Assembly: GCA_045611665.1 (NCBI GenBank)
Contig: JAZKXP010000006.1
Span: forward strand, 1-60,283
DNA length: 60,283 nt
Reading direction: 5' to 3'
Source: Alphaproteobacteria bacterium
GTDB lineage: Bacteria; Pseudomonadota; Alphaproteobacteria; CAAHEQ01; UBA3637
Shown: positions 30,515 through 47,597 of the stretch, in pieces
How the letters are laid out: each line of letters begins with the position of its first letter
Numbering within the stretch: position 1 is the first letter of the stretch
Notes under the pieces: generated by a model
The model's input: only the letters and a program-made list of their open reading frames with translations
Databases searched by the model: none
Told to the model about the DNA's origin: nothing
Translations under genes and position numbers: made by a program

Positions 30515-31282
30515 TTGCAAATGAGATTTACGGTATTATCGCCTTATCAAGTCTTTTTTATTGATGAAACCGAAAAATTGTGGACGGTTTTAAAAGATTC
30601 TCGTATCAGATTAATCGGTGCAGTCCCTGCTTTTTCCAATATTTCGGTATCTTATAAAACTTTATGTGGTGTAGAGTTTGACGGAGAGCATACCGTCATT
30701 TTGTCTATGCCTTTTGGATTTGCCGAAGAAAATCCTCATCAATTATTCAGATTGTTCGGATATTGTTATTATCCTACGTTGTTTGAAGGAAAACATCCTA
30801 AGGTAGCTTTGTTAAAGGCCGATTTGCTCAATCGAGCCGGAACGGCTGATTTAATTATTTATGAACGGGCCAGAACGAAGTTTCATCCTTTGGTTAAGTT
30901 GGCGGCTCGTATTATTCCTCCGAAATGGGACGCGCAAAATGGCTTGTTATATTATGTTACGGCCAAAGGAACGTTAGCGCGTACCAACGGAAAAACGGGT
31001 GAAAAATTGGCCGAATCAGCAGATTATTTTTGTTTGAATCGAACGGCAACGGAAATAGCCTATTACGATGGGGAACATATTTACACTGTTTCTTTGGAGA
31101 CGGGTAATACACGTAAGATTATGGCTTTTAATGTGACGGCACTCGGGTATTCGGGTGAGGGGGATGAGCTGTTTTTTGCAACTTCAAACGGCGAAACGCA
31201 TATGATACAAAAGTATAATAAACAAACGGATGAAGTGGATTTAATTGCCCGTGTTGCCGTTGCCGTTAGAATGATATTGTGA
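30515..31282 (+). CDS. hypothetical protein (possible TolB/PD40-like beta-propeller blades)
   Basis: TTG start (ATG 2 codons later). Repeated G..LY/YY....G motifs near the C-terminus. No firm domain call. Confidence 0.45.
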   Translation: MQMRFTVLSPYQVFFIDETEKLWTVLKDSRIRLIGAVPAFSNISVSYKTLCGVEFDGEHTVILSMPFGFAEENPHQLFRLFGYCYYPTLFEGKHPKVALLKADLLNRAGTADLIIYERARTKFHPLVKLAARIIPPKWDAQNGLLYYVTAKGTLARTNGKTGEKLAESADYFCLNRTATEIAYYDGEHIYTVSLETGNTRKIMAFNVTALGYSGEGDELFFATSNGETHMIQKYNKQTDEVDLIARVAVAVRMIL

Positions 31283-31352
31283 TTTTGTGTTTTTTTTATT
31301 GATTCTGATAAAAATACTTGCTCTTGCTTCGGGTATCTGTTATAACAAATGA

Positions 31353-31535
31353 CAGGGCGAGTGATGTGCGCCCCGAGGTATAAGAGCCTCTTTTCAGAAG
31401 CATCTTTTAGGATGAAACGTCTTTCCGGCTTGGCTGGAAGGCGGCCCAATAAGCCTTTTGCGGTCAATAAGCCGCACTATATCTTCTGAAATAGCTCTTA
31501 ACTTCCAGTCGCCACTCATCACGGCGATTTTTTAA
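31353..31535 (+). ncRNA. structured cis-regulatory leader RNA, copy A
   Basis: Promoter TTGCTC (31318-31323)/17 nt/TATAAC (31341-31346). GCCCCGAGG-loop-CCTCTT hairpin (31370-31392). Central hairpin CTTTCCGGC-TTG-GCTGGAAGG (31421-31441). GCTCTTA (31494-31500) is complementary to loop TAAGAGC (31381-31387). 3' box ACTTCCAG (31501-31508). Terminator TCGCC..GGCGA plus T6 (31509-31533). The GGAGG RBS and TTG start of 31548 follow. Confidence 0.75.
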
Positions 31536-31547
31536 TGGAGGTTTATT

Positions 31548-32906
31548 TTGAAACGTGATTTTGACTCCGGTCGGTCTATGGTGGAAATCATTGGCGTGAT
31601 GGCGGTGATGGGCGTTTTAATTATCGGCGGAATAGCCGGATACAAATACGCCATAGACAAAGCCAAAGCGAATCACATTATGAAAGATGTAGAACTGGCA
31701 TATGTGGCTGTATCTGCCTCCCCTGACCGAGAAAATATCGGCCTTACCGAATATACCGATGCCGTCAGCGGTTTTCCGACTTTTACAGAATGCATTATAG
31801 ATAAAGACTTTCAAGCAGATATTATCTTAGTCAAACACGTTCCTGAATCGGTCTGTGACAAAGTGTTGGAAATGGCCGAACCGACGCAGTGGATTGTTTC
31901 TTCGGTGGAAACGGATACGAATTATCTGTACCCGTTGACGGAATGTTCGGATACAAATGCATTAGTATTTTCTTTAGCCGATATACGCGATTTTGCATAC
32001 ACTTGCGATAAAGAATGTCCCGCAAATATGATGTGTGGCGTGAATGATGATTGTATTTGTGCCTATGGGTACAAGGCTGATGAAACAGGGACTTGTCAAG
32101 AAATTCAATGTGATGAAACGACAGAAGTCACTTGCACTTTTGACAGAGGGGAAAAATGGTGTTGCCCATACAATACATTCTGCAGCGAAACCCAAATCGG
32201 ACAATGTATTCCCTCAGATGGGTCATGTATTTATTACTTTTATGGTAATGGTAATACAGATTCTAAATATACAACAAATTGTAGTTACTTTGTTGCCGCC
32301 CAAGATACTGTCGAAAAAAATGGAACGAATTGCAGTTATATTATCAGTAGTTCTGGTACAGTAACATCCAACCAAGAATGTCCAGAAAAAAATCATTATT
32401 GCGCACTGATTTGGACAAAAGCAAGTTGGGAGGGAAATGAACAAGAGCCTATTGCATCTGGTAATTTTACTGGAACAATCTATGGTAAATGTCAATCAAT
32501 GGCGGCTTTTGAACGAACACCCGTCGTCTCATACAAAGAAGGAAAGTCAATGATTTACCCAAATATTGAATGTCCAGAAAAAAATCATTATTGTGCACTG
32601 ATTTGGACAAAAGAAAATTGGGAAGGAAATGAACAAGAGCCTATTGCATCTGGTAATTTTACTGGAACAATCTATGGTAAATGTCAATCAATGGCGGCTT
32701 TTGAACAAACACCTATTATGAAACACAATGATGCCAATCCTTTAAATTATCGTGTTGAAAAAGAATGTCCTCAAAAGCAATATTGCCATTTACAATGGTC
32801 AAATGAAATCTGCGAAATAGCTCCTGCAGATATAACTGGCCCAATATATGGAGCATGCGCGAGCATGAACACCTCAAATAAAGCTTGTCCCATAAAATCA
32901 GAATAA
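31548..32906 (+). CDS. Cys-rich protein with type IV pilin-like class III signal (sub-family A)
   Basis: TTG start 7 nt after GGAGG. MKRDFDSG|RSMVEIIGVMAVMGVLIIGGIAGYKYA. Head domain and three C-terminal ~64-aa repeats homologous to 1642..3069. Confidence 0.8.
   Translation: MKRDFDSGRSMVEIIGVMAVMGVLIIGGIAGYKYAIDKAKANHIMKDVELAYVAVSASPDRENIGLTEYTDAVSGFPTFTECIIDKDFQADIILVKHVPESVCDKVLEMAEPTQWIVSSVETDTNYLYPLTECSDTNALVFSLADIRDFAYTCDKECPANMMCGVNDDCICAYGYKADETGTCQEIQCDETTEVTCTFDRGEKWCCPYNTFCSETQIGQCIPSDGSCIYYFYGNGNTDSKYTTNCSYFVAAQDTVEKNGTNCSYIISSSGTVTSNQECPEKNHYCALIWTKASWEGNEQEPIASGNFTGTIYGKCQSMAAFERTPVVSYKEGKSMIYPNIECPEKNHYCALIWTKENWEGNEQEPIASGNFTGTIYGKCQSMAAFEQTPIMKHNDANPLNYRVEKECPQKQYCHLQWSNEICEIAPADITGPIYGACASMNTSNKACPIKSE
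32376..32900 (+). repeat. three tandem ~192-195-bp coding repeats; units 1 and 2 nearly identical
   Basis: Units start at about 32376, 32568 and 32763. Units 1 and 2 share a ~145-nt stretch with only a handful of mismatches (ECPEKNHYCALIWTK..WEGNEQEPIASGNFTGTIYGKCQSMAAFE). Confidence 0.85.
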
Positions 32907-32933: not shown

Positions 32934-33338
32934 ATGAAAAAAGTACTCATACTAATATGTATTATTTTAACAATATTTAATATTACATCAGTGCATGCGG
33001 AATCTTGTGCTGGTGGACATGGTACAATTCAAACTGGTATAAATGGCAAAAAGTATTGCGCCAGCAAAAATACTTTAAATTGGTGGAGCGCTCATGCTTG
33101 GTGTCGAAAAGCCGAAGGATTTTCTGAACTACTAACCATGGAAGATTGTGATTGTACTGGTTATGATGAATGTGATACAACATTAAGTTGTCCAAATTTA
33201 AAAAATATTTATGAAAGTTGGTCTGGTATTCCTGCGGGAAAAGATAACGCATATTATTTTTCGTATGGAGCCGTCAAACATCCTGGCCCTCTTGGAAGAT
33301 ATCGAAATTGGGGGGGCTATAGAGCACTATGTAAATAA
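32934..33338 (+). CDS. small secreted Cys-rich C-type-lectin-like protein
   Basis: Signal peptide. KYCASKNTLNWWSAHAWCRKAEGF...YRALCK pattern. Paralog of 43109..43555. 27 nt downstream of the pilin-like gene, so probably co-transcribed. Confidence 0.7.
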   Translation: MKKVLILICIILTIFNITSVHAESCAGGHGTIQTGINGKKYCASKNTLNWWSAHAWCRKAEGFSELLTMEDCDCTGYDECDTTLSCPNLKNIYESWSGIPAGKDNAYYFSYGAVKHPGPLGRYRNWGGYRALCK

Positions 33339-39301: not shown

Positions 39302-40544
39302 TTAATATCTCCTGTAATATATGATGCCACCGATTTCGCCATATTTTTTTAGAAAAGCATTGGCTGGTTTTTAGGGCATTTTGTGATAATTGCATTCGTA
39401 AGTTTGGATTTGACAGAACCAATTCTAAGGTTTCCAATAATTCTTTTGAATTCGGATTAATTAATAAACCGTTATAGCCTTGTAAAATCAAGTTGGGCAG
39501 ACCTCCGACATTTGTGGCAATAACGGTGTTGCCCGAAGCCATAGCCTCTAAACATGATAGGCTGGTGCCTTCGGAATGTAAGGTTGGGATGAGGCAAATA
39601 TCCGTATTTTGATAAACCTCAGGCATTTTATCACCTTCAACAATGCGATGGGAAATTTGATTCGGAAATTGGTGTTTTAACCTGTCTAAATCCTGCACGA
39701 TTTCTTCTTGGCAGGGAAAGCCTACAAATTCAAACAATACATCCGGATGACGAGACAGTAAAGTCGGTAAAATATCGGCGGTTTCCCAATACCCTCGTTC
39801 AATGGAACATCGTCTGGGAAAGGTTATTTTTACGGGATGATTTATTCTTTTAATCGGTTTGAAAGTGTCTAAATCTACGTAATTTGGAATGTAGTACATT
39901 TTTTTGTCGGATTGATAAACCGTCTGTGAAAATGTGGAACGAAACCAAGATAATGTGTTGGTATCTACGGATATAAAAGTGTCAGTCTCTTTTAAATAGA
40001 TATCATATAATTGTGTGATATTTTCGACATTTTTTTTGACGATATCCCATGTAATGCCGTGAGAAATTCGTATGTTTGGATGATTTAAGGGGCCGAAATT
40101 GGCAACACCCGAGTAAATGTATAACGCCGCTTTCGGTAATTTAGATAACATGTCGGCAATAAAGGCTGTTTCGTAAACGGGTATGCCGATAACGTTCAGA
40201 TTATTTTTGTTTCGAAAAAACGGTGCGATATCTTGATTGGCATTTTGCAATAAAATAGGGATATATCCCATATCTGTCAGCAATTGTGCTAAATCTAAAG
40301 CATACCGTTCTCCACCGCCCGAAAAAAAGTTTTCACCCCGAAAATCAAAAAAGGATTCTTGAATGATGTAAATGGCTTTATCTGTTTTTCCACCCGTTAT
40401 TGAGATTATTTTGTCACAAATCGGGTCGGCATTTTTCAGTAAGTATTTTTGAAAGGCTTTAAATTTTTTAAATCGTCTGTATTTTTTTAACGGACAAACG
40501 GCTGTTTTAAAGGCACGTTTATACCATGGTTTAGGCTTTTTCAT
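39264..40544 (-). CDS. family 4 (GT-B) glycosyltransferase
   Basis: C-terminal EGTSLSCLEAMASGNTVIATNVGGLP..I..G.NG is the GT1/GT4 E-x7-E region. Confidence 0.8.
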   Translation of the reverse strand: MKKPKPWYKRAFKTAVCPLKKYRRFKKFKAFQKYLLKNADPICDKIISITGGKTDKAIYIIQESFFDFRGENFFSGGGERYALDLAQLLTDMGYIPILLQNANQDIAPFFRNKNNLNVIGIPVYETAFIADMLSKLPKAALYIYSGVANFGPLNHPNIRISHGITWDIVKKNVENITQLYDIYLKETDTFISVDTNTLSWFRSTFSQTVYQSDKKMYYIPNYVDLDTFKPIKRINHPVKITFPRRCSIERGYWETADILPTLLSRHPDVLFEFVGFPCQEEIVQDLDRLKHQFPNQISHRIVEGDKMPEVYQNTDICLIPTLHSEGTSLSCLEAMASGNTVIATNVGGLPNLILQGYNGLLINPNSKELLETLELVLSNPNLRMQLSQNALKTSQCFSKKIWRNRWHHILQEILNENNFNHFGNAA

Positions 40545-41388
40545 ATTTTTTCCCCATTAATCCTTTGATAACGAATAAACCGTAAAATAATCGCCCCCAA
40601 AGGGGTGAAACGGTTAAAATTTTATCTTTACTTGTTTTGTCCTTTAATCGTTTGAATTGTTTAAATAAACTGACTGTTTTGGTATAAGATGATAAGTGCC
40701 ATTGAGACCAATAAGCCAGTTTTACTTCTAATGTTTTTTGTTGGACTTGCTGTTGTTTGGTTGCGGTTAAAGAGGATGAATTGTCACGATATTTATATAA
40801 GCAATCATTTAATTTCATAAAATGAATGCCGGCTGTGTATAAGCGCATCCAATATTCGTAATCTTCTGCACAAAATAAGTTTTCATTATATCCGCCCAAT
40901 GTATCGTAACATGTTCGTCGATATAAAAAACACGCTCCGATACAGCACCCGTTGTATAATGATTTTGGGGTTTTTAAACGGATAGTTTTTTTTGCGTTTC
41001 CTTGCTCATCAATGATTTGCATATCGGCATAAACAAAGTCGGTTTCGGGATGTGATTGAAAAGCGTTTATCATCACCTCAAACGCATTGGGCAGATATCT
41101 GTTATCATCACTGGTCCAAGTGAAAAAATCACCTTTTGCTTGGGCAAATCCTATGTTCAATGAGGCCGGTAATTTTTTATTAACCGCATTGGTTATGATA
41201 CGAATTCGATTATCTTTTTTGGCGTAATCTTTTAAAATATCGGCGGTTTTGTCGGTTGAACAATCATTGATGATAATCAGCTCAAAGTCCGCAAACGTTT
41301 GTGCCAAAATACTGTCAATGGATTCGGATAAAAATCGCATACCGTTATATGTCGGCAAAATAACCGATAGTGTCGGATTTTGTGTCAT
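40531..41388 (-). CDS. family 2 glycosyltransferase (first gene of operon)
   Basis: LSVILPTYNG..FL.ESIDSILAQTF.DFELIIINDCSTD; DDN motif. Confidence 0.8.
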   Translation of the reverse strand: MTQNPTLSVILPTYNGMRFLSESIDSILAQTFADFELIIINDCSTDKTADILKDYAKKDNRIRIITNAVNKKLPASLNIGFAQAKGDFFTWTSDDNRYLPNAFEVMINAFQSHPETDFVYADMQIIDEQGNAKKTIRLKTPKSLYNGCCIGACFLYRRTCYDTLGGYNENLFCAEDYEYWMRLYTAGIHFMKLNDCLYKYRDNSSSLTATKQQQVQQKTLEVKLAYWSQWHLSSYTKTVSLFKQFKRLKDKTSKDKILTVSPLWGRLFYGLFVIKGLMGKKYEKA

Positions 41389-41504
41389 ACTTTCCCCCTT
41401 AAAGTATTTACGAATATAATCGGATAGGTTATATGGGGGGTATCGACTGAAAAATCAATACTTTTGTGTAAAAAAAACATATATTTCAAACTCCCGTTTT
41501 TTGT

Positions 41505-41687
41505 TAAACAAAAACCACTTAAAAAGTGGTTGGAAGTTGAACACTACTTTAGCCAAATAGTACATCGTATTCGCCGGAACAACGACTTATTCAGATGTCT
41601 TCCAACCGTTGTTGGAAGTATTGATATCCTGTTTTTTCAAGATAGGCTAAAAAGAGGTGTTCAAACCTCGGGGCAAAAAATTACCTT
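41505..41687 (-). ncRNA. structured cis-regulatory leader RNA, copy D (upstream of glycosyltransferase operon)
   Basis: On the minus strand: GCCCCGAGG-TTTGAACA-CCTCTT. Loop TTGAACAC (plus-strand 41657-41664) is complementary to GTGTTCAA (41537-41544). Central hairpin CTTCCAAC-AACG-GTTGGAAG (41599-41618). 3' box ACTTCCAACC (41528-41537). Terminator AACCACTT-TTT-AAGTGGTT plus T run (41505-41531). Weak promoter TTGCAT/17 nt/TACCCT (41694-41722). Confidence 0.7.
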
Positions 41688-42381: not shown

Positions 42382-42824
42382 AAAGAGTTAGCTGTTATTT
42401 TGTTGACATCACAGGCGGGCGGTAAAGTGTCTTCTTTCACTTTGACCAATTCCCCCGTTGGTGTTAATTCATAAAGGGTGAGGGTAATGGGATGAACATC
42501 CATCCACGAGTTGCCAAACTCACGTTTTTTGCGTACAATCCGAAATGGATTTGTGTAAAAGTCAAAATCTTGTACCATGCAGTCGGCTCCTTCCATCGTG
42601 TTAAAATTTTCTACAGAAATTTGATGCCATTTATTATCCCGAAAAACTTCCAATAAAAACGTATCGTACCCATGAGCGGTTATATTGGGACTATGTATAC
42701 GTGTTATGCGAATTTTTATGTTGTTTTGTGTCAAATCGGTTGTGCCGATCGGTATGTTTAACGGTTCGGCCCATACCACGGCAGACCACATCATCACACA
42801 TAATCCCAATAAAAATTTTATCAT
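42378..42824 (-). CDS. hypothetical secreted protein
   Basis: 148 aa with signal peptide MIKFLLGLCVMMWSAVVWA. No recognisable domain. Confidence 0.5.
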   Translation of the reverse strand: MIKFLLGLCVMMWSAVVWAEPLNIPIGTTDLTQNNIKIRITRIHSPNITAHGYDTFLLEVFRDNKWHQISVENFNTMEGADCMVQDFDFYTNPFRIVRKKREFGNSWMDVHPITLTLYELTPTGELVKVKEDTLPPACDVNKITANSF

Positions 42825-42895
42825 ATTTTACGAATACGTCATTTTAAACCATTTTTCGGGTTGATTTTTGTATGTGGATTTGCTAATCTGATTTT

Positions 42896-43077
42896 AAGGT
42901 AAGTATTTTGCCCCGAGGTGTCAGAACCTCTTAAAGCGCGTCCGACAGCGGACGAAAAATATACGCTTTCCAGCATTGGCTGGAGGGCGGCAAAATAGGC
43001 AGTAATGCTGAATATGCCCACTATTCGCTTTAATAGTTCTGAACTTCCAGCCACTTTTTTTATAAAGGTGGTTTTTT
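42896..43077 (+). ncRNA. structured cis-regulatory leader RNA, copy B
   Basis: Promoter TTGATT (42861-42866)/17 nt/TAATCT (42884-42889). GCCCCGAGG-TGTCAGAA-CCTCTT (42910-42932). Loop TCAGAAC (42921-42927) is complementary to GTTCTGA (43036-43042). Central hairpin CTTTCCAGC-ATTG-GCTGGAGGG (42966-42987). 3' box ACTTCCAGCC (43043-43052). Terminator CCAC..GGTGG plus T6 (43051-43077). Confidence 0.75.
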
Positions 43078-43108
43078 GTTGAATGATAACAGAAAGGGAA
43101 TGTTCAAA

Positions 43109-43555
43109 ATGAAAAACTTATTTTTAATCTGTGCTGTTTTATTCACTACACCTGTTGCATTGGCCGATGATATCACTACCGAAACTTGTGCGAATGGCGC
43201 CGGAACAGTTATTGTGGGAAAAAGCGGTACTCAATATTGCATGAGCAACAATACAATGAATTTTTGGAATGCTTATTCTTGGTGTGATTCTTTGGGGATG
43301 CGTTTTATTGATTTAAATACTGAATGTGGATGTTCATCATTAGTTGATTGTAATGGACCTGTAAATACAGCAGGAAAATGTCCTGAATTGGCAACGGGGG
43401 TGGATACAAATATTTATATTTGGACAACATATTCTCAGGGACAAAATCCCTTGCTGATGAGCATTAATAATGGTGAAATTACATCGTATTGGACATATCG
43501 TTCACACACATCAAATGGTGTTAAAGGATGGCCATATCATGCTTTATGTCGCTAA
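43109..43555 (+). CDS. small secreted Cys-rich C-type-lectin-like protein
   Basis: ORF track 43076..43555. ATG 43109 follows RBS AAAGGGA and gives signal peptide MKNLFLICAVLFTTPVALA. QYCMSNNTMNFWNAYSWCDSLGMRF...YHALCR. Paralog of 32934..33338. Confidence 0.7.
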   Translation: MKNLFLICAVLFTTPVALADDITTETCANGAGTVIVGKSGTQYCMSNNTMNFWNAYSWCDSLGMRFIDLNTECGCSSLVDCNGPVNTAGKCPELATGVDTNIYIWTTYSQGQNPLLMSINNGEITSYWTYRSHTSNGVKGWPYHALCR

Positions 43556-43617
43556 TTGTAAAAAAAACAACCCCGCCAAACCGGCGGGGCATTTCGCATA
43601 ACTTATCGTAAAATAAA

Positions 43618-43977
43618 TTATTCTTTGTCTTCGGTAATACGAGCGGCTTTACCGAACAAATTGCGCAAGTAGTACAATTTGGAACGACGGACTTTACCAC
43701 GACGAACGACTTCAATGCTGGCGACGTTCGGAGAGTAAATCGGGAAAATTCTTTCAACTCCTTCACCGAAAGAAATTTTACGGATTGTCATTGTGGAGTT
43801 CAAACCATCGTTGGAACGAGCGATACAAACACCTTCATACGCTTGTAAACGTTCACGACCTTTATCTTCAATGATTTTGCACATCACTTTAACGGTATCA
43901 CCAGCTTTAAATTCCGGAATGGATTTGTTCAATTTGGCGATTTGTTCGTTTTCCAATTGTTTAATTAAGTTAGTCAT
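43618..43977 (-). CDS. rplS: 50S ribosomal protein L19
   Basis: [12 protein letters not shown]....[11 protein letters not shown] matches the L19 N-terminus (ORF track starts 5 codons earlier, at 43992). Confidence 0.9.
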
Positions 43978-43996
43978 GTTTTTACCTTTCATTTTA

Positions 43997-44677
43997 TTAT
44001 TTTTGGCAATAAGTTGTCCATAAATCAGGACGTCTTTGTTTAGTCATTTCTTCAGACATGTGCCGGCGCCATTTGGCGATATTGGCATGATGTCCGCTGA
44101 GCAGTATGTCGGGCACTTCACGACCTTGCCAGACGGCAGGTTTTGTGTATTGCGGATATTCCAATAATCCATTGGCAAAACTTTCTTCCGATAAAGAATC
44201 GGCATTTCCCATAACGGATGGAATTAAACGGATAACGGCATCTAACATTGTTAATAGGGCAGGTTCTCCACCACTTAAAACAAAATCGCCGATGCTGATT
44301 TCTTGAATGTTATATTTTTCAATAACGCGTTCGTCAATTCCTTCAAAACGGCCACAAATAAAGGTCGCTTTTTCCATATTGGCAAATGTATGGGCCATTT
44401 TTTGAGAAAAAACCTTACCACGTGGCGATAAATAGAAAATGGGTTCATCTTCATGGACCGAAGCAATGGCTTTATCCAATACTTCCGGTTTCATCACCAT
44501 ACCGGCACCACCGCCAAAGGGTGTATCATCAACGGATTTGTATTTGTCGGTTGCAAAATCACGAATGTTGATGACATTCATAGACCATTTGTTTTCAGCG
44601 AGTGCCCGACCAGCCAAGGAATATCCAAGGCATCCGGGGAACATTTCGGGATAAAGTGTCAAAATGTTAATCTTCAT
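43997..44677 (-). CDS. trmD: tRNA (guanine37-N1)-methyltransferase
   Basis: [15 protein letters not shown]..., [23 protein letters not shown] 44675-44677 follows a GGAGA RBS. Confidence 0.9.
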
Positions 44678-45179
44678 CTGTATCTCCGTTAATGTCATGA
44701 GGGGCATTCAAACAAATCGTTTTATTTTGCATATCCACAACCGGAAAATTATCGGATGTAAATGCAAAATCCATTACTTTGCCGTTTAATAAAGTTATTT
44801 CCAAAATATCCGAAGCACCATAGTTGTTCACAGCCGTTACCGACCCGATTTTATCATCATTTTGCAAGACATCTAATCCCACTAAATCATGATAGTAATA
44901 TTCATCGGTATTTGCCACCGGTAATTTACTTTTATCGGCATACAGACGTTTTCCTCGTAAGGTTTCCGCCGTATTGCGATTGTTTACGTTTTTAACGCTG
45001 GCAATGATTGTTTCACCATGAACACGTGTGCCATACAACTCATAAATCGTCCCGTTATCATCCACGAACGGATTTAATTTGCCGATTTGCGCAGGGTTAT
45101 TCAAGAACGGTTTAATTTTTACCGCCCCTTTAATGCCATGCACATTGACAATTTGACCGACGAGGATTTTATTGGACAT
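44667..45179 (-). CDS. rimM: 16S rRNA processing protein RimM
   Basis: VG.IVNVHGIKG.VKIK and a PRC-barrel C-terminus. Position in rpsP-rimM-trmD-rplS. Confidence 0.9.
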   Translation of the reverse strand: MSNKILVGQIVNVHGIKGAVKIKPFLNNPAQIGKLNPFVDDNGTIYELYGTRVHGETIIASVKNVNNRNTAETLRGKRLYADKSKLPVANTDEYYYHDLVGLDVLQNDDKIGSVTAVNNYGASDILEITLLNGKVMDFAFTSDNFPVVDMQNKTICLNAPHDINGDTDED

Positions 45180-45190
45180 TTATTTATTCC

Positions 45191-45577
45191 TTATTCAGCT
45201 GGTGTTTCTGCGGCGGCAGCGGCAGCTTCGGCAGCGGCAGCAGCTTTTTCAGCCAATTCTCTCATACGTTCTTGAGCTTTTGCTTTCGGAGCGCATTTTT
45301 TGGTTTGTTCACGAATAGCCGGTTTTTCAGCTAAACCTTTTAAGGCAAACAATTTTTGAACACGTTCCGTCATTTGAGCGCCTTGAGCCATCCATTTTTT
45401 AGCGGCTTCTTCTTTGATAACCAAAGCATCAGCGTGATCTTTCGGTAATAACGGATTGTAATGACCTAAAGCTTCAATGAAACGACCGTCACGAGGACTG
45501 CGGCTGTCTGCGACAACAATTTTATGAACAGGGCGTTTTTTGGAACCACCTCTTGCTAAACGAATTTTTACTGACAT
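45191..45577 (-). CDS. rpsP: 30S ribosomal protein S16 (with Ala/Glu-rich C-terminal extension)
   Basis: [16 protein letters not shown]...[19 protein letters not shown]. Confidence 0.9.
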
Positions 45578-45945: not shown

Positions 45946-47385
45946 TTACTTATCGGTGCAAAGTATAAAACCAGCAGAATATTGATTAGCATCATAAGGT
46001 GATATATGCTCTGTTCCGCCACAAATAAAACGTTGTGAAGTATTCTCAGAATAAACATCTTCCAGCCACTTTCTGTTAATGTTGGTTTTAAATGATTTTG
46101 CTCGATTGTTGGGAACAACGGTTGAGAGGTGTTCTGAATCAAATGACCACGATAAATAAAAATCATCGGCTTTGGCCATTCGCCATCCACTAGAACTACA
46201 GACATCTTTGGCCGTGTACCAATTTGTAAAATCGCTACTAGTTGAGGGGAAATACCAATTTTCCGTATGTTCTATGCCATTTTCATCCGTAAATGTAATT
46301 GTTTCGGTTGTATAGGATGGTACCTGTTCGCAAACACCACTCCCGTTTTGGGATAACCCATTACAGTATTGTCCACTGCCACACACCTTATGCGAGGTAC
46401 ATGAAATGGCGCAAGTCCCATCTAGCCAACATATACCGATTTGGTTATCTTGCGTTATACACATATTCCCTATCAAATAGGTACAAGAATTATCTTGACA
46501 CCCGACACAAACTGTATCTACTCCTTGTTCTGTGGCATACATAGTACAATCAATACCCCCACATAGCGTGTTTTCAGTTTGGCATATACCATTAGAACAC
46601 ACACCTTGCTTACCGTTTTTCTCACAAGTTAATCCACCGATAAGAGTTGGTGTACCATCTGCTACAACAAAGCAAGCTGGATCATAAGGGCAATTTTCCA
46701 CACTGCCGGTTTCACTGATACAAGTTTGTGTTCCGTCTGCCATACAAGTACCCAATACGCAATATCCCGTTTGTCCATCTTCAGTTGTACATTTAGATAT
46801 TGGTCCATTATTACTACAGCCTTTATTTTCTTCTTCATCAAAATAAAAGACCAACGTATTTTCATCACCGCAATCGCCGGCGTTTTCTCCCGCATATTCG
46901 GCATTAATTTTAACAGCTTTTGCATGTTTTTCCATACCCTCTACCATCAACTCACATACACGGCTCGGCACACCGGATACCTGAATTCCTATGGTTTCAT
47001 CTTCTAACGTAATCGGGTAAAGAGTCTTTTCATTTTTCCACCCATCTAAGGTGGCATCTCCGGTTGTATCAAACTGAGCCAACACATCTACAGCTCGTAC
47101 ATTCACATCATATATAGTCCGATTTGCCCGATATTTGTCCATACCGTAGCTGTAGCCGGCAATTCCGCCGACACTCAATACGCCGATGATGGCCAAAGTA
47201 CCGAGCATTTCTACCATAGAACGTCCACTTTGTGCTATGATGGCCCCTCGGGTCTTCGTTTCACTCCGACCGAGGGAGACAGAAAGGGGGAAACGACCGG
47301 CTTCTACTTTTCTATCATACTGGTGCCCCTCACCAGTATCCAGCAGTAATGAGGCATTATTATGGTTAAAATCTTGCGTAGCCAT
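45946..47385 (-). CDS. Cys-rich protein with internal pilin-like class III signal and C-type-lectin-like C-terminus (sub-family B)
   Basis: RBS AAGGAAG before ATG 47385. The motif ...AQSG|RSMVEMLGTLAIIGVLSVGGIAGYSYGMDKYRAN begins only at about residue 53. Many CxxGxxC modules. C-terminus FTNWYTAKDVCSSSGWRM...GFILCTDK. Confidence 0.75.
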   Translation of the reverse strand: MATQDFNHNNASLLLDTGEGHQYDRKVEAGRFPLSVSLGRSETKTRGAIIAQSGRSMVEMLGTLAIIGVLSVGGIAGYSYGMDKYRANRTIYDVNVRAVDVLAQFDTTGDATLDGWKNEKTLYPITLEDETIGIQVSGVPSRVCELMVEGMEKHAKAVKINAEYAGENAGDCGDENTLVFYFDEEENKGCSNNGPISKCTTEDGQTGYCVLGTCMADGTQTCISETGSVENCPYDPACFVVADGTPTLIGGLTCEKNGKQGVCSNGICQTENTLCGGIDCTMYATEQGVDTVCVGCQDNSCTYLIGNMCITQDNQIGICWLDGTCAISCTSHKVCGSGQYCNGLSQNGSGVCEQVPSYTTETITFTDENGIEHTENWYFPSTSSDFTNWYTAKDVCSSSGWRMAKADDFYLSWSFDSEHLSTVVPNNRAKSFKTNINRKWLEDVYSENTSQRFICGGTEHISPYDANQYSAGFILCTDK

Positions 47386-47414
47386 TTAGACTTCCTTTCA
47401 ATTTACAAATTAAA

Positions 47415-47597
47415 CGAAAACCACCTTTATAAAAAAAGTGGCTGGAAGTTAAGAGCTATTAAAACCAAACAGTATGATATATTGACCCCATAGGGCTATT
47501 TTATCATCCTCCAGCCAATGCTGGAAGTATTTTATGTCCTTGACTATAGGACAGGTTTTAAGAGGCTCTTATACCTCAGGGCAGAACACCTGCCTTA
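47415..47597 (-). ncRNA. structured cis-regulatory leader RNA, copy C
   Basis: Promoter TTGCAA (47627-47632)/17 nt/TAGTGT (47604-47609) on the minus strand. GCCCTGAGG-TATAAGAG-CCTCTT. Loop TAAGAGC (plus 47565-47571) is complementary to GCTCTTA (plus 47450-47456). Central hairpin CTTCCAGC-ATTG-GCTGGAGG (47508-47528). 3' box ACTTCCAGCC (47440-47449). Terminator (47417-47440). Confidence 0.75.

Follow-up and report, generated by a model that had tools for sequence, protein, structure and literature searches.

A bistable leader RNA, probably a default-off transcription attenuator, upstream of surface and secreted protein genes in gut Alphaproteobacteria

Positions 42896-43077 of the forward strand of the window (the whole 60,283-nucleotide stretch of DNA that was analysed) encode a promoter-driven, structured leader RNA of about 180 nt, here copy B, which carries an intrinsic terminator at its 3' end. 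As judged from the sequence, copy B probably acts in cis as a two-state transcription attenuator, off by default and dependent on an effector, and belongs to a large family of such leaders. The initial annotation of this DNA had proposed a leader that has a promoter and a terminator of its own and lies immediately before a gene for a secreted protein, and this picture holds; indeed, the promoter, the loop and its pairing partner, the terminator and the open reading frame all lie where that annotation had placed them. That the leader controls the downstream gene, as was also claimed, is what its anatomy suggests.

The RNA would begin at its own promoter, a sigma70-like element at 42861-42889 (+) that occupies the slot typical of the family. 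It consists of a -35 hexamer TTGATT (42861-42866) and a -10 hexamer TAATCT (42884-42889), separated by a 17-nt spacer in which lies an extended -10 TG (42881-42882), and transcription would start near 42896. The promoter is absent from the output of a consensus promoter scanner, and the earlier description of it as the best of the copies does not stand, given that it matches the consensus at 7 of 12 positions, as does that of copy C, while copy A reaches 8/12. Over 147 copies, the mean score of the promoter slot is 8.36/12, whereas a control slot placed 60 nt further upstream averages 5.52 (p = 9e-20). At the other end of the leader, the terminator (43049-43077, +; -10.2 kcal/mol) comprises a 10-bp hairpin at 43049-43073, which includes CCAC (43051-43054) and GGUGG (43067-43071), and then U6 at 43072-43077. 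It had been placed 30 nt before the ribosome-binding site (RBS), and it is indeed present, but the RBS AAAGGGA (43093-43099, +) begins only some 16-19 nt beyond the U-tract, the distance of 31 nt being that to the ATG of the gene. The MFE of copy B, -72.1 kcal/mol (z = -6.5, 200 shuffles), taken together with a covariance score of 110 bits (E ~5e-27), puts its structure well beyond chance.

The covariance model, which represents a 143-position core of the leader, finds exactly four copies in the window, which score 99-112 bits, the next match having 13 bits. Beside copy B these are copy A (core 31373-31511, +; 112.5 bits), upstream of a gene for a prepilin-like protein of 452 amino acids, copy C (47439-47579, -; 111.5 bits), upstream of a gene for a prepilin-like protein of 479 amino acids, and copy D (41527-41671, -; 99.1 bits), followed by a short ORF and a gene for a GT2 glycosyltransferase. 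Beyond the window, the family numbers at least 270 distinct copies in well over 70 gut Alphaproteobacteria MAGs, at least 160 of them of type 1 and at least 113 of type 2, and reaches about 20 or more copies in one genome. A phage origin of the leader was considered and rejected, since viral contigs gave no matches.

In the first of its two folds, the native or terminator-permissive fold, the RNA forms the elements P1 to P5 together with a long-range helix of 20 bp, P2/P2b, which closes a junction holding P3, P4 and P5 and leaves the terminator free. All of these lie on the forward strand. P1 (GGUAA/UUGCC, 42898-42912, from the MFE fold) is a 5'-terminal hairpin, and a hairpin occurs at its position in all copies though their sequences differ (mean MFE of the region -6.5 versus -2.6 when shuffled). 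The 5' strand of P2 (42915-42927) is made up of GAGGU (42915-42919), a bulged G and a variable strand W (UCAGAAC, 42921-42927), and it is paired with a switch segment at 43036-43052, in which strand Z (GUUCUGA, 43036-43042) is perfectly complementary to W and ACUUC (43043-43047) pairs with GAGGU. P2b extends this helix in the MFE fold by pairing strand X (42931-42938) with 43026-43033. Within the junction lie P3 (42939-42954; 93.7% paired, with compensatory changes in all five pairs), P4 (42965-42988; 87.9-94.6% paired) and P5 (42989-43018), a hairpin with a symmetric 5x5 internal loop of AAAUA (42993-42997) opposite GAAUA (43010-43014) and a base helix that covaries in all six pairs. P4, which is proposed to be an anti-antiterminator, is rich in G-U pairs, its Watson-Crick pairs ranging from 4 to 9 with 6 the commonest number.

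The evidence for this fold is comparative. P2 is 99% paired, with double compensatory changes in 6 of its 12 pairs, and no helix of the family covaries more strongly than its variable part W/Z, in which five of seven pairs show multiple compensatory types. The pairing of 42921-42927 with 43036-43042 put forward in the initial annotation is thereby borne out, but the word 'loop' for the former fits the alternative fold alone, as in the terminator-permissive fold the same nucleotides are a strand of the long-range helix. Cognate P2b strands form duplexes with a mean of -8.3 kcal/mol versus -1.5 kcal/mol for non-cognate ones (p = 2e-32), and the same comparison in type 2 gives -5.7 versus -0.9 (p = 1e-53). 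Over the native fold as a whole, 92-93% of alignment cells are paired, against 33.5-51.2% with the 3' partners slid along, and 23-24 pairs have double changes; its covariation score was reached by 0 of 500 shuffles, a type of control that overstates the significance of covariation scores since the paralogous copies are related. In other words, the leader possesses a covariation-supported structured 5' domain, as a riboswitch does.

The covariation supports a second global fold, mutually exclusive with the first. Here GAGG, the start of GAGGU, pairs with CCUC (42927-42930) in a hairpin H1 of which W is the loop; a local hairpin H2 (43020-43037) pairs ACUAU (43020-43024) with AUAGU (43033-43037) and holds the 3' strand of P2b in its loop; and the 3' strand of P4, the shared 'mid' strand GGCUGGAGG (42978-42986), leaves P4 to form a 9-bp helix with the antiterminator strand CUUCCAGCC (43044-43052), that part of the switch segment which bridges P2 and the terminator. 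The first four nucleotides of the terminator (43049-43052) are common to this alternative helix, such that the fold uses up the terminator's 5' arm and gives a three-way junction with P5 and H2. An antiterminator fold of this kind, conserved as it is, had no place in the first account of the RNA.

Every one of 918 cells of the alternative helix is paired in a 102-sequence alignment, with double changes in four pairs, as are all 450 cells in another alignment, and all nine base pairs can form in 157 of 157 copies through 12 different sequence combinations. Moreover, the helix has 8-9 Watson-Crick pairs, versus the 6 commonest in P4. The alternative fold overall is 98.3% paired with six pairs double-changed, its score being reached by 0 of 500 shuffles, and it is also what RNAalifold returns as the consensus of a terminator-less alignment. 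H1 is paired in 100% of type 1 and takes the forms GGGG/CCCC, AGGG/CCCU, UGGG/CCCA and GGAG/CUCC in other subtypes; H2 shows a compensatory change from A:U to G:C in seven sequences and CG/AU changes in the neighbouring pair, and appears in type 2 as GCCGU/ACGGU or GCCAU/AUGGU. The terminator is present in about 98-100% of copies, a terminator-like hairpin and U-tract lying 3' of 156 of 159 type-1 copies and type-2 terminators being found in effectively all copies (98 detected automatically and 15 confirmed by eye). These 15 had been flagged as terminator-less copies that might rely on RBS pairing instead, an idea that was rejected once all of them proved to have terminators, their U-rich loops having misled the detector. 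Each of the three pairings that define a four-strand attenuator is conserved: strands 1:2 in P4, 2:3 in the alternative helix and 3:4 in the terminator.

From these pairings we infer termination, read-through and switching of the leader. In the off state strands 1:2 and 3:4 would be paired, with P2 as an extra lock on strand 3, and in the on state strands 2:3. Termination would be the default, since of the two folds the native one has the greater stability and its helices can close one after another as the RNA is transcribed. Together with the terminator it is favoured in 48 of 50 copies, by a mean difference of -11.6 kcal/mol, and in silico it is already ahead by 8-12 kcal/mol before the terminator's 3' arm exists, so that the alternative fold would need substantial help to form. 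Such help would come from a putative effector, whether a small molecule or an RNA-binding protein, which would favour the alternative fold and hence read-through into the gene. The most likely site for it would be the P5 internal loop, which is stacked immediately against the competing helices.

This candidate site comes from the comparison of subtypes. Two divergent subtypes, types 2 and 3, re-code every otherwise 'invariant' block in concert, that is, H1, H2, the base of P2, the mid strand and the switch segment, and the sole motif constant over all subtypes is the symmetric RAAUA/RAAUA loop of P5, both AAUA blocks of which are at least 90% conserved and are kept in types 2 and 3. As the only motif to survive so wholesale a re-coding of the switch, the loop is the natural candidate, and it is its conservation that suggests an effector site.

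The stability of the native fold, the thermodynamic ground state of almost every copy, is what would be expected too if the leader were a constitutive structured 5' UTR, acting on stability, processing or translation efficiency and carried on a mobile promoter-leader-RBS cassette, with no switching at all. The alternative helix, H1 and H2 would then be transient folding intermediates, and for H1 and H2 it is conceivable that they arise in this way during co-transcriptional folding and belong to no regulatory state. A 5'-terminal hairpin is a classical mRNA stabiliser, as in the ompA 5' UTR, and P1 resembles one; furthermore, promoter, leader and RBS type move as a unit before unrelated genes. 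However, such a scheme gives no good reason for conserving an intrinsic terminator between a constitutive UTR and its gene, and the long-range alternative helix is 100% paired, stronger than P4, overlaps the terminator arm precisely and has been re-coded in concert in three subtypes, the last of which is hard to expect of a mere intermediate. We consider a constitutive role unlikely, and prefer the attenuator.

As an attenuator, the leader resembles those of the PyrR and trp types in having four competing strands, with P4 in the role of anti-antiterminator, the 3' strand of P4 and the switch segment in that of antiterminator, and the switch segment and the 3' arm in that of terminator. It differs from both in the additional 20-bp P2/P2b helix and the local alternatives H1 and H2, by which the switch segment is locked, from PyrR-type leaders in having no known PyrR-like binding-loop consensus, and from trp-type leaders in being without a leader peptide. 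A trp-type mechanism, in which a ribosome on a short ORF covers strand 1, would share the same four-strand logic, and there is an SD-like GAGGU close to the 5' end as well as, in copy B, a GUG frame that runs from 42918 to a UAG in P5. Nonetheless, the GUG abuts the SD-like sequence without spacing, its frame has a median of 2 codons in the 89 copies that possess it, and the SD-like sequence is missing from types 2 and 3. No ORF is conserved in the leader on either strand, the starts of AUG-ORFs being scattered across it. With neither start position nor reading frame conserved, leader-peptide attenuation was rejected as hardly credible. An antisense ORF within the element, 42839-43054 (-), had been dismissed as spurious, and rightly: of 50 copies examined, 49 could be scored, and just 11 of these have a frame of 60 codons or more.

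With terminator/antiterminator riboswitches such as c-di-GMP-I and c-di-GMP-II, the leader shares a promoter-proximal, structured domain with strong covariation, a terminator whose 5' arm is common to an alternative helix, and many copies per genome before pilus, adhesin and surface genes; in its alternative fold, the antiterminator closes a three-way junction in the manner of a ligand-stabilised P1 helix. Unlike them, it has no similarity to any Rfam model, its terminator-containing fold is the elaborate one, it exists in at least three re-coded switch versions within the same genomes, and dual base-pairing, not a binding pocket, accounts for nearly all of its conserved blocks. The leader's regulon of pilins, adhesins and glycosyltransferases, and its many copies per genome, recall the regulons of c-di-GMP riboswitches, for example in C. 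difficile, and this similarity raises the question of whether the leader is a divergent member of that or another known class tied to pili and surface genes. We judge this very improbable, and the known c-di-GMP-I and c-di-GMP-II riboswitches were rejected on consensus sequence and structure: their architecture is unlike that of the leader, no Rfam 15 family reaches its gathering threshold anywhere in the window, and a search of 42700-43200 with permissive filters gave chance matches alone (E >= 2, at most 13.8 bits), among them HTH-XRE (13.8 bits, E = 9.8), whose gathering score is 49.8. The leader may still bind the same ligand by way of a new aptamer, a case that belongs with the attenuator explanation. 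The family appears to be undescribed so far, as it was not found in the literature, including the main text and part of the supplements of a human-microbiome structured-RNA survey (PMC8040213).

The relation of the switch segment to the RBS bears on another possibility, namely that the function resides in the terminated RNA of about 180 nt, as one of a multicopy family of trans-acting sRNAs whose read-through is incidental, the anti-SD-like switch segment acting, for example, on type-matched RBSs across the regulon. The predicted default termination would give an abundant short RNA, two or three orthogonal leader types occur together in single genomes, and GGAAG, complementary to the switch segment, is found in 63% of type-1 RBS regions, with GGAUG in 22% of those of type 2, over a background of 3-4%. 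Against this, nearly all copies share one orientation and precede a start codon by a median of about 21 nt, a signature of cis control, and neither conserved fold leaves the anti-SD segment exposed. Moreover, the matching of RBS and leader within types is weak (p = 0.03 and 0.001, that of the Z strand alone being not significant), and the RBS is paired with the switch segment in just 17-35% of MFE folds. A trans-acting role is, on balance, improbable, and general sequestration of the RBS by the switch segment was rejected on these same proportions and weak covariation. The complementarity is, for all that, left unexplained by a purely transcriptional attenuator.

The gene after copy B (43109-43555, +) encodes a Cys-rich protein of 148 amino acids with a signal-peptide-like N-terminus. 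Its claimed paralogy to the product of 32934-33338 (+), a 134-aa protein encoded by the second gene after copy A, is confirmed at 33% identity (E = 4e-14). The protein has only 13 homologues and no family assignment in Pfam or NCBIfam. Of the top 50 PDB matches from Foldseek to its AF2 model (pLDDT 77), nearly all are C-type lectin-like domains, as in the C-terminal domain of Bdellovibrio Bd2740, intimin D3 and animal CTLDs, with which it would share an alpha/beta fold, conserved Cys pairs and a W-x-x-A-x-x-W-C-x-x-x-G motif; it differs from them in lacking a Pfam or NCBIfam match and in the weakness of the structural similarity, the best match having E = 0.016 with TM 0.46/0.59 (0.34-0.59 among the top matches). 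The term 'lectin-like' in the initial annotation agrees with the identity of these matches, whose weakness leaves it loosely founded; the protein is here called lectin-fold-like, with lectin activity putative.

The products of the prepilin-like genes after copies A (31548-32906, +) and C (45946-47385, -), candidates for type IV pilins or pseudopilins, have no Pfam or NCBIfam match. They show the motif G-RSM[VI]E-[MI]LGxLAIIGVL, and L039, a relative, weakly resembles a prepilin-peptidase-dependent protein, at E = 1.5e-4, which falls short of the cutoff. The glycosyltransferase gene after copy D (40531-41388, -) matches PF00535 with E = 4e-33. In the family at large the regulon is mostly of prepilin-like proteins, small secreted lectin-fold-like proteins, LRR adhesins, outer-membrane barrels, lipoproteins and glycosyltransferases. 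Several of the downstream protein classes, among them a family of about 170 aa marked by 'NSATMTVTATIAHDVSL', gave no Pfam match. One leader before both pilin-like and lectin-like genes, as first pointed out for this DNA, is seen here and at hundreds of other loci, and co-regulation is the natural inference from it. The outcome across the regulon would be that surface and secreted proteins, the 148-aa protein of copy B among them, are expressed in a coordinated way. A signalling nucleotide would be a fitting effector for pili, adhesins and surface glycans; the regulon suits a signalling molecule in this way, and points to no specific metabolite.

Similar genes, for pili, surface polysaccharide glycosyltransferases and outer-membrane and secreted proteins, are the targets of NusG-paralogue systems (RfaH/ops, Bacteroides UpxY and the LoaP leader hairpins), which likewise exert their effect within the 5' leader, ahead of a terminator. 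Those systems, however, combine a short DNA or RNA element with a dedicated protein in processive antitermination, whereas here a bistable RNA of 180 nt would mask one adjacent terminator structurally.

A wider reading of the family can be offered tentatively. The leader is perhaps the founder of a new riboswitch or riboswitch-like class, in which an effector is read by the pseudo-symmetric RAAUA/RAAUA loop, the switch is fully dual-coded in at least three orthogonal types that occur side by side in one genome, and the RBS is a type-matched third partner. If so, transcription and translation would be gated together through pairing of the RBS with the switch segment, and the class would govern most of the variable surface proteome of uncultured gut Alphaproteobacteria, namely pilins, fimbrial-like subunits, adhesins, OMPs, lipoproteins and surface-glycan enzymes.

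For RNA biology, the leader is a bistable molecule in which two different pairings constrain nearly every conserved nucleotide, and its naturally re-coded versions provide covariation support for both folds. The family is, in addition, a well-populated orphan candidate for the discovery of a ligand or protein, and its covariance model can be used to annotate leaders, and to predict co-regulated surface genes, in gut metagenomes. These Alphaproteobacteria are common in humans and ruminants and are uncultured, and to our knowledge almost nothing is known of their regulation. In them, the leader family would be a master cis-element for the presentation of the bacterial surface to the host.

Copy B of the leader RNA is preceded by a sigma70-like promoter on the + strand (−35 TTGATT, 42861-42866; a 17-nt spacer with an extended −10 TG; −10 TAATCT, 42884-42889), such that a structured RNA of ~180 nt would begin near 42896 and end in a 10-bp hairpin (43049-43073) running into U6 (43072-43077). 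The RBS (43093-43099) and the 148-aa ORF (ATG at 43109), which has a signal-peptide-like N-terminus, follow on the same strand. The RNA folds at −72.1 kcal/mol, with z = −6.5 against shuffled controls. A consensus scanner lists the terminator, in agreement with the initial annotation; the promoter is absent from the scanner's list and, with 7/12 consensus matches, does not exceed those of copies A (8) and C (7), such that its description as the best promoter is not supported. Its position is typical for the family. A bidirectional terminator-like hairpin (43570-43590) lies between the copy-B gene and rplS, the latter in an rpsP-rimM-trmD-rplS ribosomal operon (43618-45577, −) directly 3' of copy C's pilin-like gene and on its strand.

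BLAST, nhmmer and a covariance model agree that the window holds exactly four copies, with cores at 31373-31511 (+, A), 42913-43053 (+, B), 47439-47579 (−, C) and 41527-41671 (−, D). With filters off, these score 99-112 bits in the covariance model, the next-best match in the window reaching 13 bits. In copy D, ~120 nt separate the terminator from a GT2 gene, and this spacer contains a ~31-codon ORF (41388-41480, −; ATG at 41480) whose stop codon, as read from the sequence, shares nucleotides with the start codon of GT2 (GTATGA), suggesting that the two are translationally coupled; the spacer is likewise long at another GT2 locus (L040, one of the leader-bearing loci in other genomes).

Across the family, the mean score of the promoter slot (whose −10 hexamer ends 20-34 nt before GAGGU) is 8.36/12 vs 5.52 in a control slot 60 nt upstream (p = 9e-20), 156/159 copies of type 1 and effectively all of type 2 (types being sequence subtypes, see below) are followed by a hairpin and U-tract, and the median distance from model end to start codon is ~21 nt. 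No ORF inside the leader is conserved among family copies on either strand; this rules out a leader-peptide mechanism and marks the 71-aa antisense ORF in copy B (42839-43054, −) as spurious, as had been suspected. The mechanical ORF list has another antisense entry, of 128 aa (31081-31467, −), which crosses copy A's promoter and 5' portion and is probably spurious too.

In MAFFT-only alignments (20, 50 and 102 sequences), RNAalifold together with an explicit count of pairs supports a native fold consisting of a 5' hairpin (P1), helices P2 and P2b, hairpins P3, P4 and P5, and the terminator. P2 is a long-range helix, GAGGU:ACUUC plus a 7-bp variable part; the latter is the pairing of loop 42921-42927 with 43036-43042 proposed earlier, and pair counting upholds it. 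In this fold, 92.4-93.4% of alignment cells are paired, vs 33.5-51.2% with the 3' partners slid by 1-3 columns; 23-24 pairs show double compensatory changes, and none of 500 shuffles reached the covariation score. Since MAFFT aligns P2b (42931-42938 with 43026-43033) poorly, this helix was confirmed without alignment, its cognate strands pairing at −8.3 vs −1.5 kcal/mol for non-cognate strands (p = 2e-32).

A second complementary partner for the 3' strand of P4 (42978-42986, GRYUGGAAG) is the segment bridging P2 and the terminator (43044-43052, CUUCCRRYC). The helix of 9 bp that the two can form is paired in every alignment cell (450/450 and 918/918) and complete in 157/157 copies, in 12 different sequence combinations with 8-9 Watson-Crick pairs. 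Its formation takes up the first four nucleotides of the terminator 5' arm and must displace P4, which is G-U-rich (88-95% paired, 4-9 Watson-Crick pairs, mode 6). The alternative helix comes with two local hairpins, H1 (GAGG/CCUC) and H2 (ACUAU/AUAGU), the latter covarying from A:U to G:C in seven sequences. For the 102-sequence alignment without the terminator, the RNAalifold consensus is this alternative fold, with H1, P3 and a three-way junction of the alternative helix, P5 and H2. In other words, the leader has two conserved, mutually exclusive folds, one of which overlaps the terminator; each 'invariant' block (GAGGU, CCUC, UGGAAG, ACUAU, AUAG, ACUUCC) is under two pairing constraints and for this reason does not vary.

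The native fold with its terminator beats the best alternative-helix fold in 48/50 copies (mean 11.6 kcal/mol) and, with the terminator 3' arm removed, is still ahead in 49/50, by 8.4 kcal/mol; moreover, P2b, the variable part of P2 and the P2 base zip in the order of transcription. These calculations suggest that termination would be the default state, and that the antiterminated fold would require an effector to drive read-through. The P5 loop is the candidate sensor, and the putative effector could be either a small signalling molecule or an RNA-binding protein.

The weak covariance-model matches (30-45 bits) proved to represent divergent subtypes, their switch elements re-coded in concert. 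In type 2, H1 becomes AGGG/CCCU (also GGGG/CCCC, UGGG/CCCA), the P2 base is weakened (GAGGU:ACUUC in type 1), the P4 3' strand reads (GGR)CGGAUGU, the switch segment ACAUCCG(CCC) and H2 GCCGU/ACGGU; in type 3, the first four are GGAG/CUCC, GGAGU:ACUCC, GGGGAG and CUCCCC. The variable part of P2, P2b, P4, P5 and the terminator are kept in all three types, and P3 in types 1 and 2, being apparently missing from the single example of type 3. At least 120 loci are of type 2 (113 unique among the matches listed), many in genomes that also bear type 1, with covariation of their own in H1, H2, the variable part of P2 and P2b. One motif alone is shared by all types: P5's symmetric internal loop, 5'-RAAUA(A)-3' opposite 5'-RAAUA-3'.

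The RBS follows the leader type (Fisher p = 1.5e-24): GGAAG occurs in 97/154 type-1 RBS regions and GGAUG in none, vs one and 24, respectively, of 111 type-2 regions, against a background of 4.2% and 3.3% in 888 leader-less genes of the same loci. GGAAGU thereby matches ACUUCC, and GGAUGU matches ACAUCC, such that the switch segment could, on sequence grounds, have the RBS as a third partner; examples are 47389-47401 (−) in the window (GAAAGGAAGUC), L153, L155 and L143. Some type-2 loci have 12-14 bp of such complementarity, enclosing the terminator hairpin. Covariation between RBS and switch segment within a type is weak, and only 17-35% of copies have this pairing in their MFE fold (copy A but not copy B). 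The matching may add translational gating, and may partly reflect common descent of a promoter-leader-RBS cassette.

The leader matches no Rfam 15 model. Pattern scans of one-genome-per-species contigs place type 1 in at least ~74 assemblies, nearly all gut or rumen Alphaproteobacteria MAGs, which we take to be the RF32/CAG-239-like lineage, among them bins from human gut submitted as 'uncultured Azospirillum sp.' and 'Proteobacteria bacterium CAG:495'. De-replication leaves at least 160 full-length type-1 copies, and single MAGs hold more than 10-20; none of the viral contigs searched carries one. The leader also occurs in bins with non-proteobacterial labels (CAVGVF01, 'uncultured Eubacteriales' H07628-L1; CAVKTH01, 'Bacteroidaceae' H07656-L1; CAVEOB01, '[Ruminococcus] gnavus' H07648-L1; loci among L143-L219, and L084, L121, L132 and L135), in two of them on many contigs, one of up to 198 kb. 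These bins are probably mislabelled Alphaproteobacteria; single short contigs in Avigastranaerophilus, Elusimicrobiota, Bacteroidales and Anaerolineales bins look like contaminants from binning. Terminator/antiterminator leaders are already well known as a kind of device; a prior description of this family was not found in the searchable literature, including the accessible part of a large human-microbiome structured-RNA survey. Such wholesale dual coding, with re-coded subtypes side by side in one genome, is unusual.

The copy-B protein is indeed paralogous to that of 32934-33338 (33% identity, E = 4e-14). Only 13 homologues can be detected, none of them named, and Pfam and NCBIfam have no family that it matches. 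The best PDB matches of its AlphaFold model (mean pLDDT 77) are almost all C-type lectin-like domains, at weak scores (E ≥ 0.016; top-match TM 0.34-0.59), such that 'lectin-like' is a reasonable guess for the fold only.

Among the collected loci, prepilin-like first genes (N-terminus G-RSM[VI]EMLG) occur in 35/160 of type 1 and 57/113 of type 2. These pilin-like genes (31548-32906, +, and 45946-47385, −, in the window; many loci elsewhere, e.g. L015:640-1992, in coordinates local to the locus) are the commonest cargo; their unusual prepilin-type N-terminus, G-RSM[VI]E-[MI]LGxLAIIGVLS, has Arg at +1, sometimes after a 40-70-aa extension, and the proteins match no Pfam or NCBIfam model. Other first genes encode small Cys-rich secreted proteins (copy-B-like), BspA-type LRR proteins, lipoproteins, OMP beta-barrels, Adr-like adhesins, GT2 and GT4 glycosyltransferases and a secreted family of ~170 aa that has no match in Pfam; a few are methyltransferase-like or HsdM-like. 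The rumen MAG RGIG4937 has more than 20 copies (L043, L044, L047, L065, L074, L078, L079, L087, L089, L096, L100, L103, L105, L106, L123, L124, L126, L137), each before a paralogous ~150-190-aa secreted protein (MKKYILLLGVA...NSATMTVTATIAHDVSL...GTITINP; no Pfam match), at times in tandem or divergent arrays; these may be a fimbrial-subunit-like family. A minority of cargo is non-surface, namely HsdM-like/MAD2-like methyltransferases, a YrbL-like protein and an XRE-type regulator (L037:963-1143, L031:2304-2484, L033:852-1021, L132), and the leaders at these loci carry P5 tip insertions of 30-60 nt. The theme of the regulon is cell surface and secreted proteins and, given this minority, it reaches slightly past the envelope.
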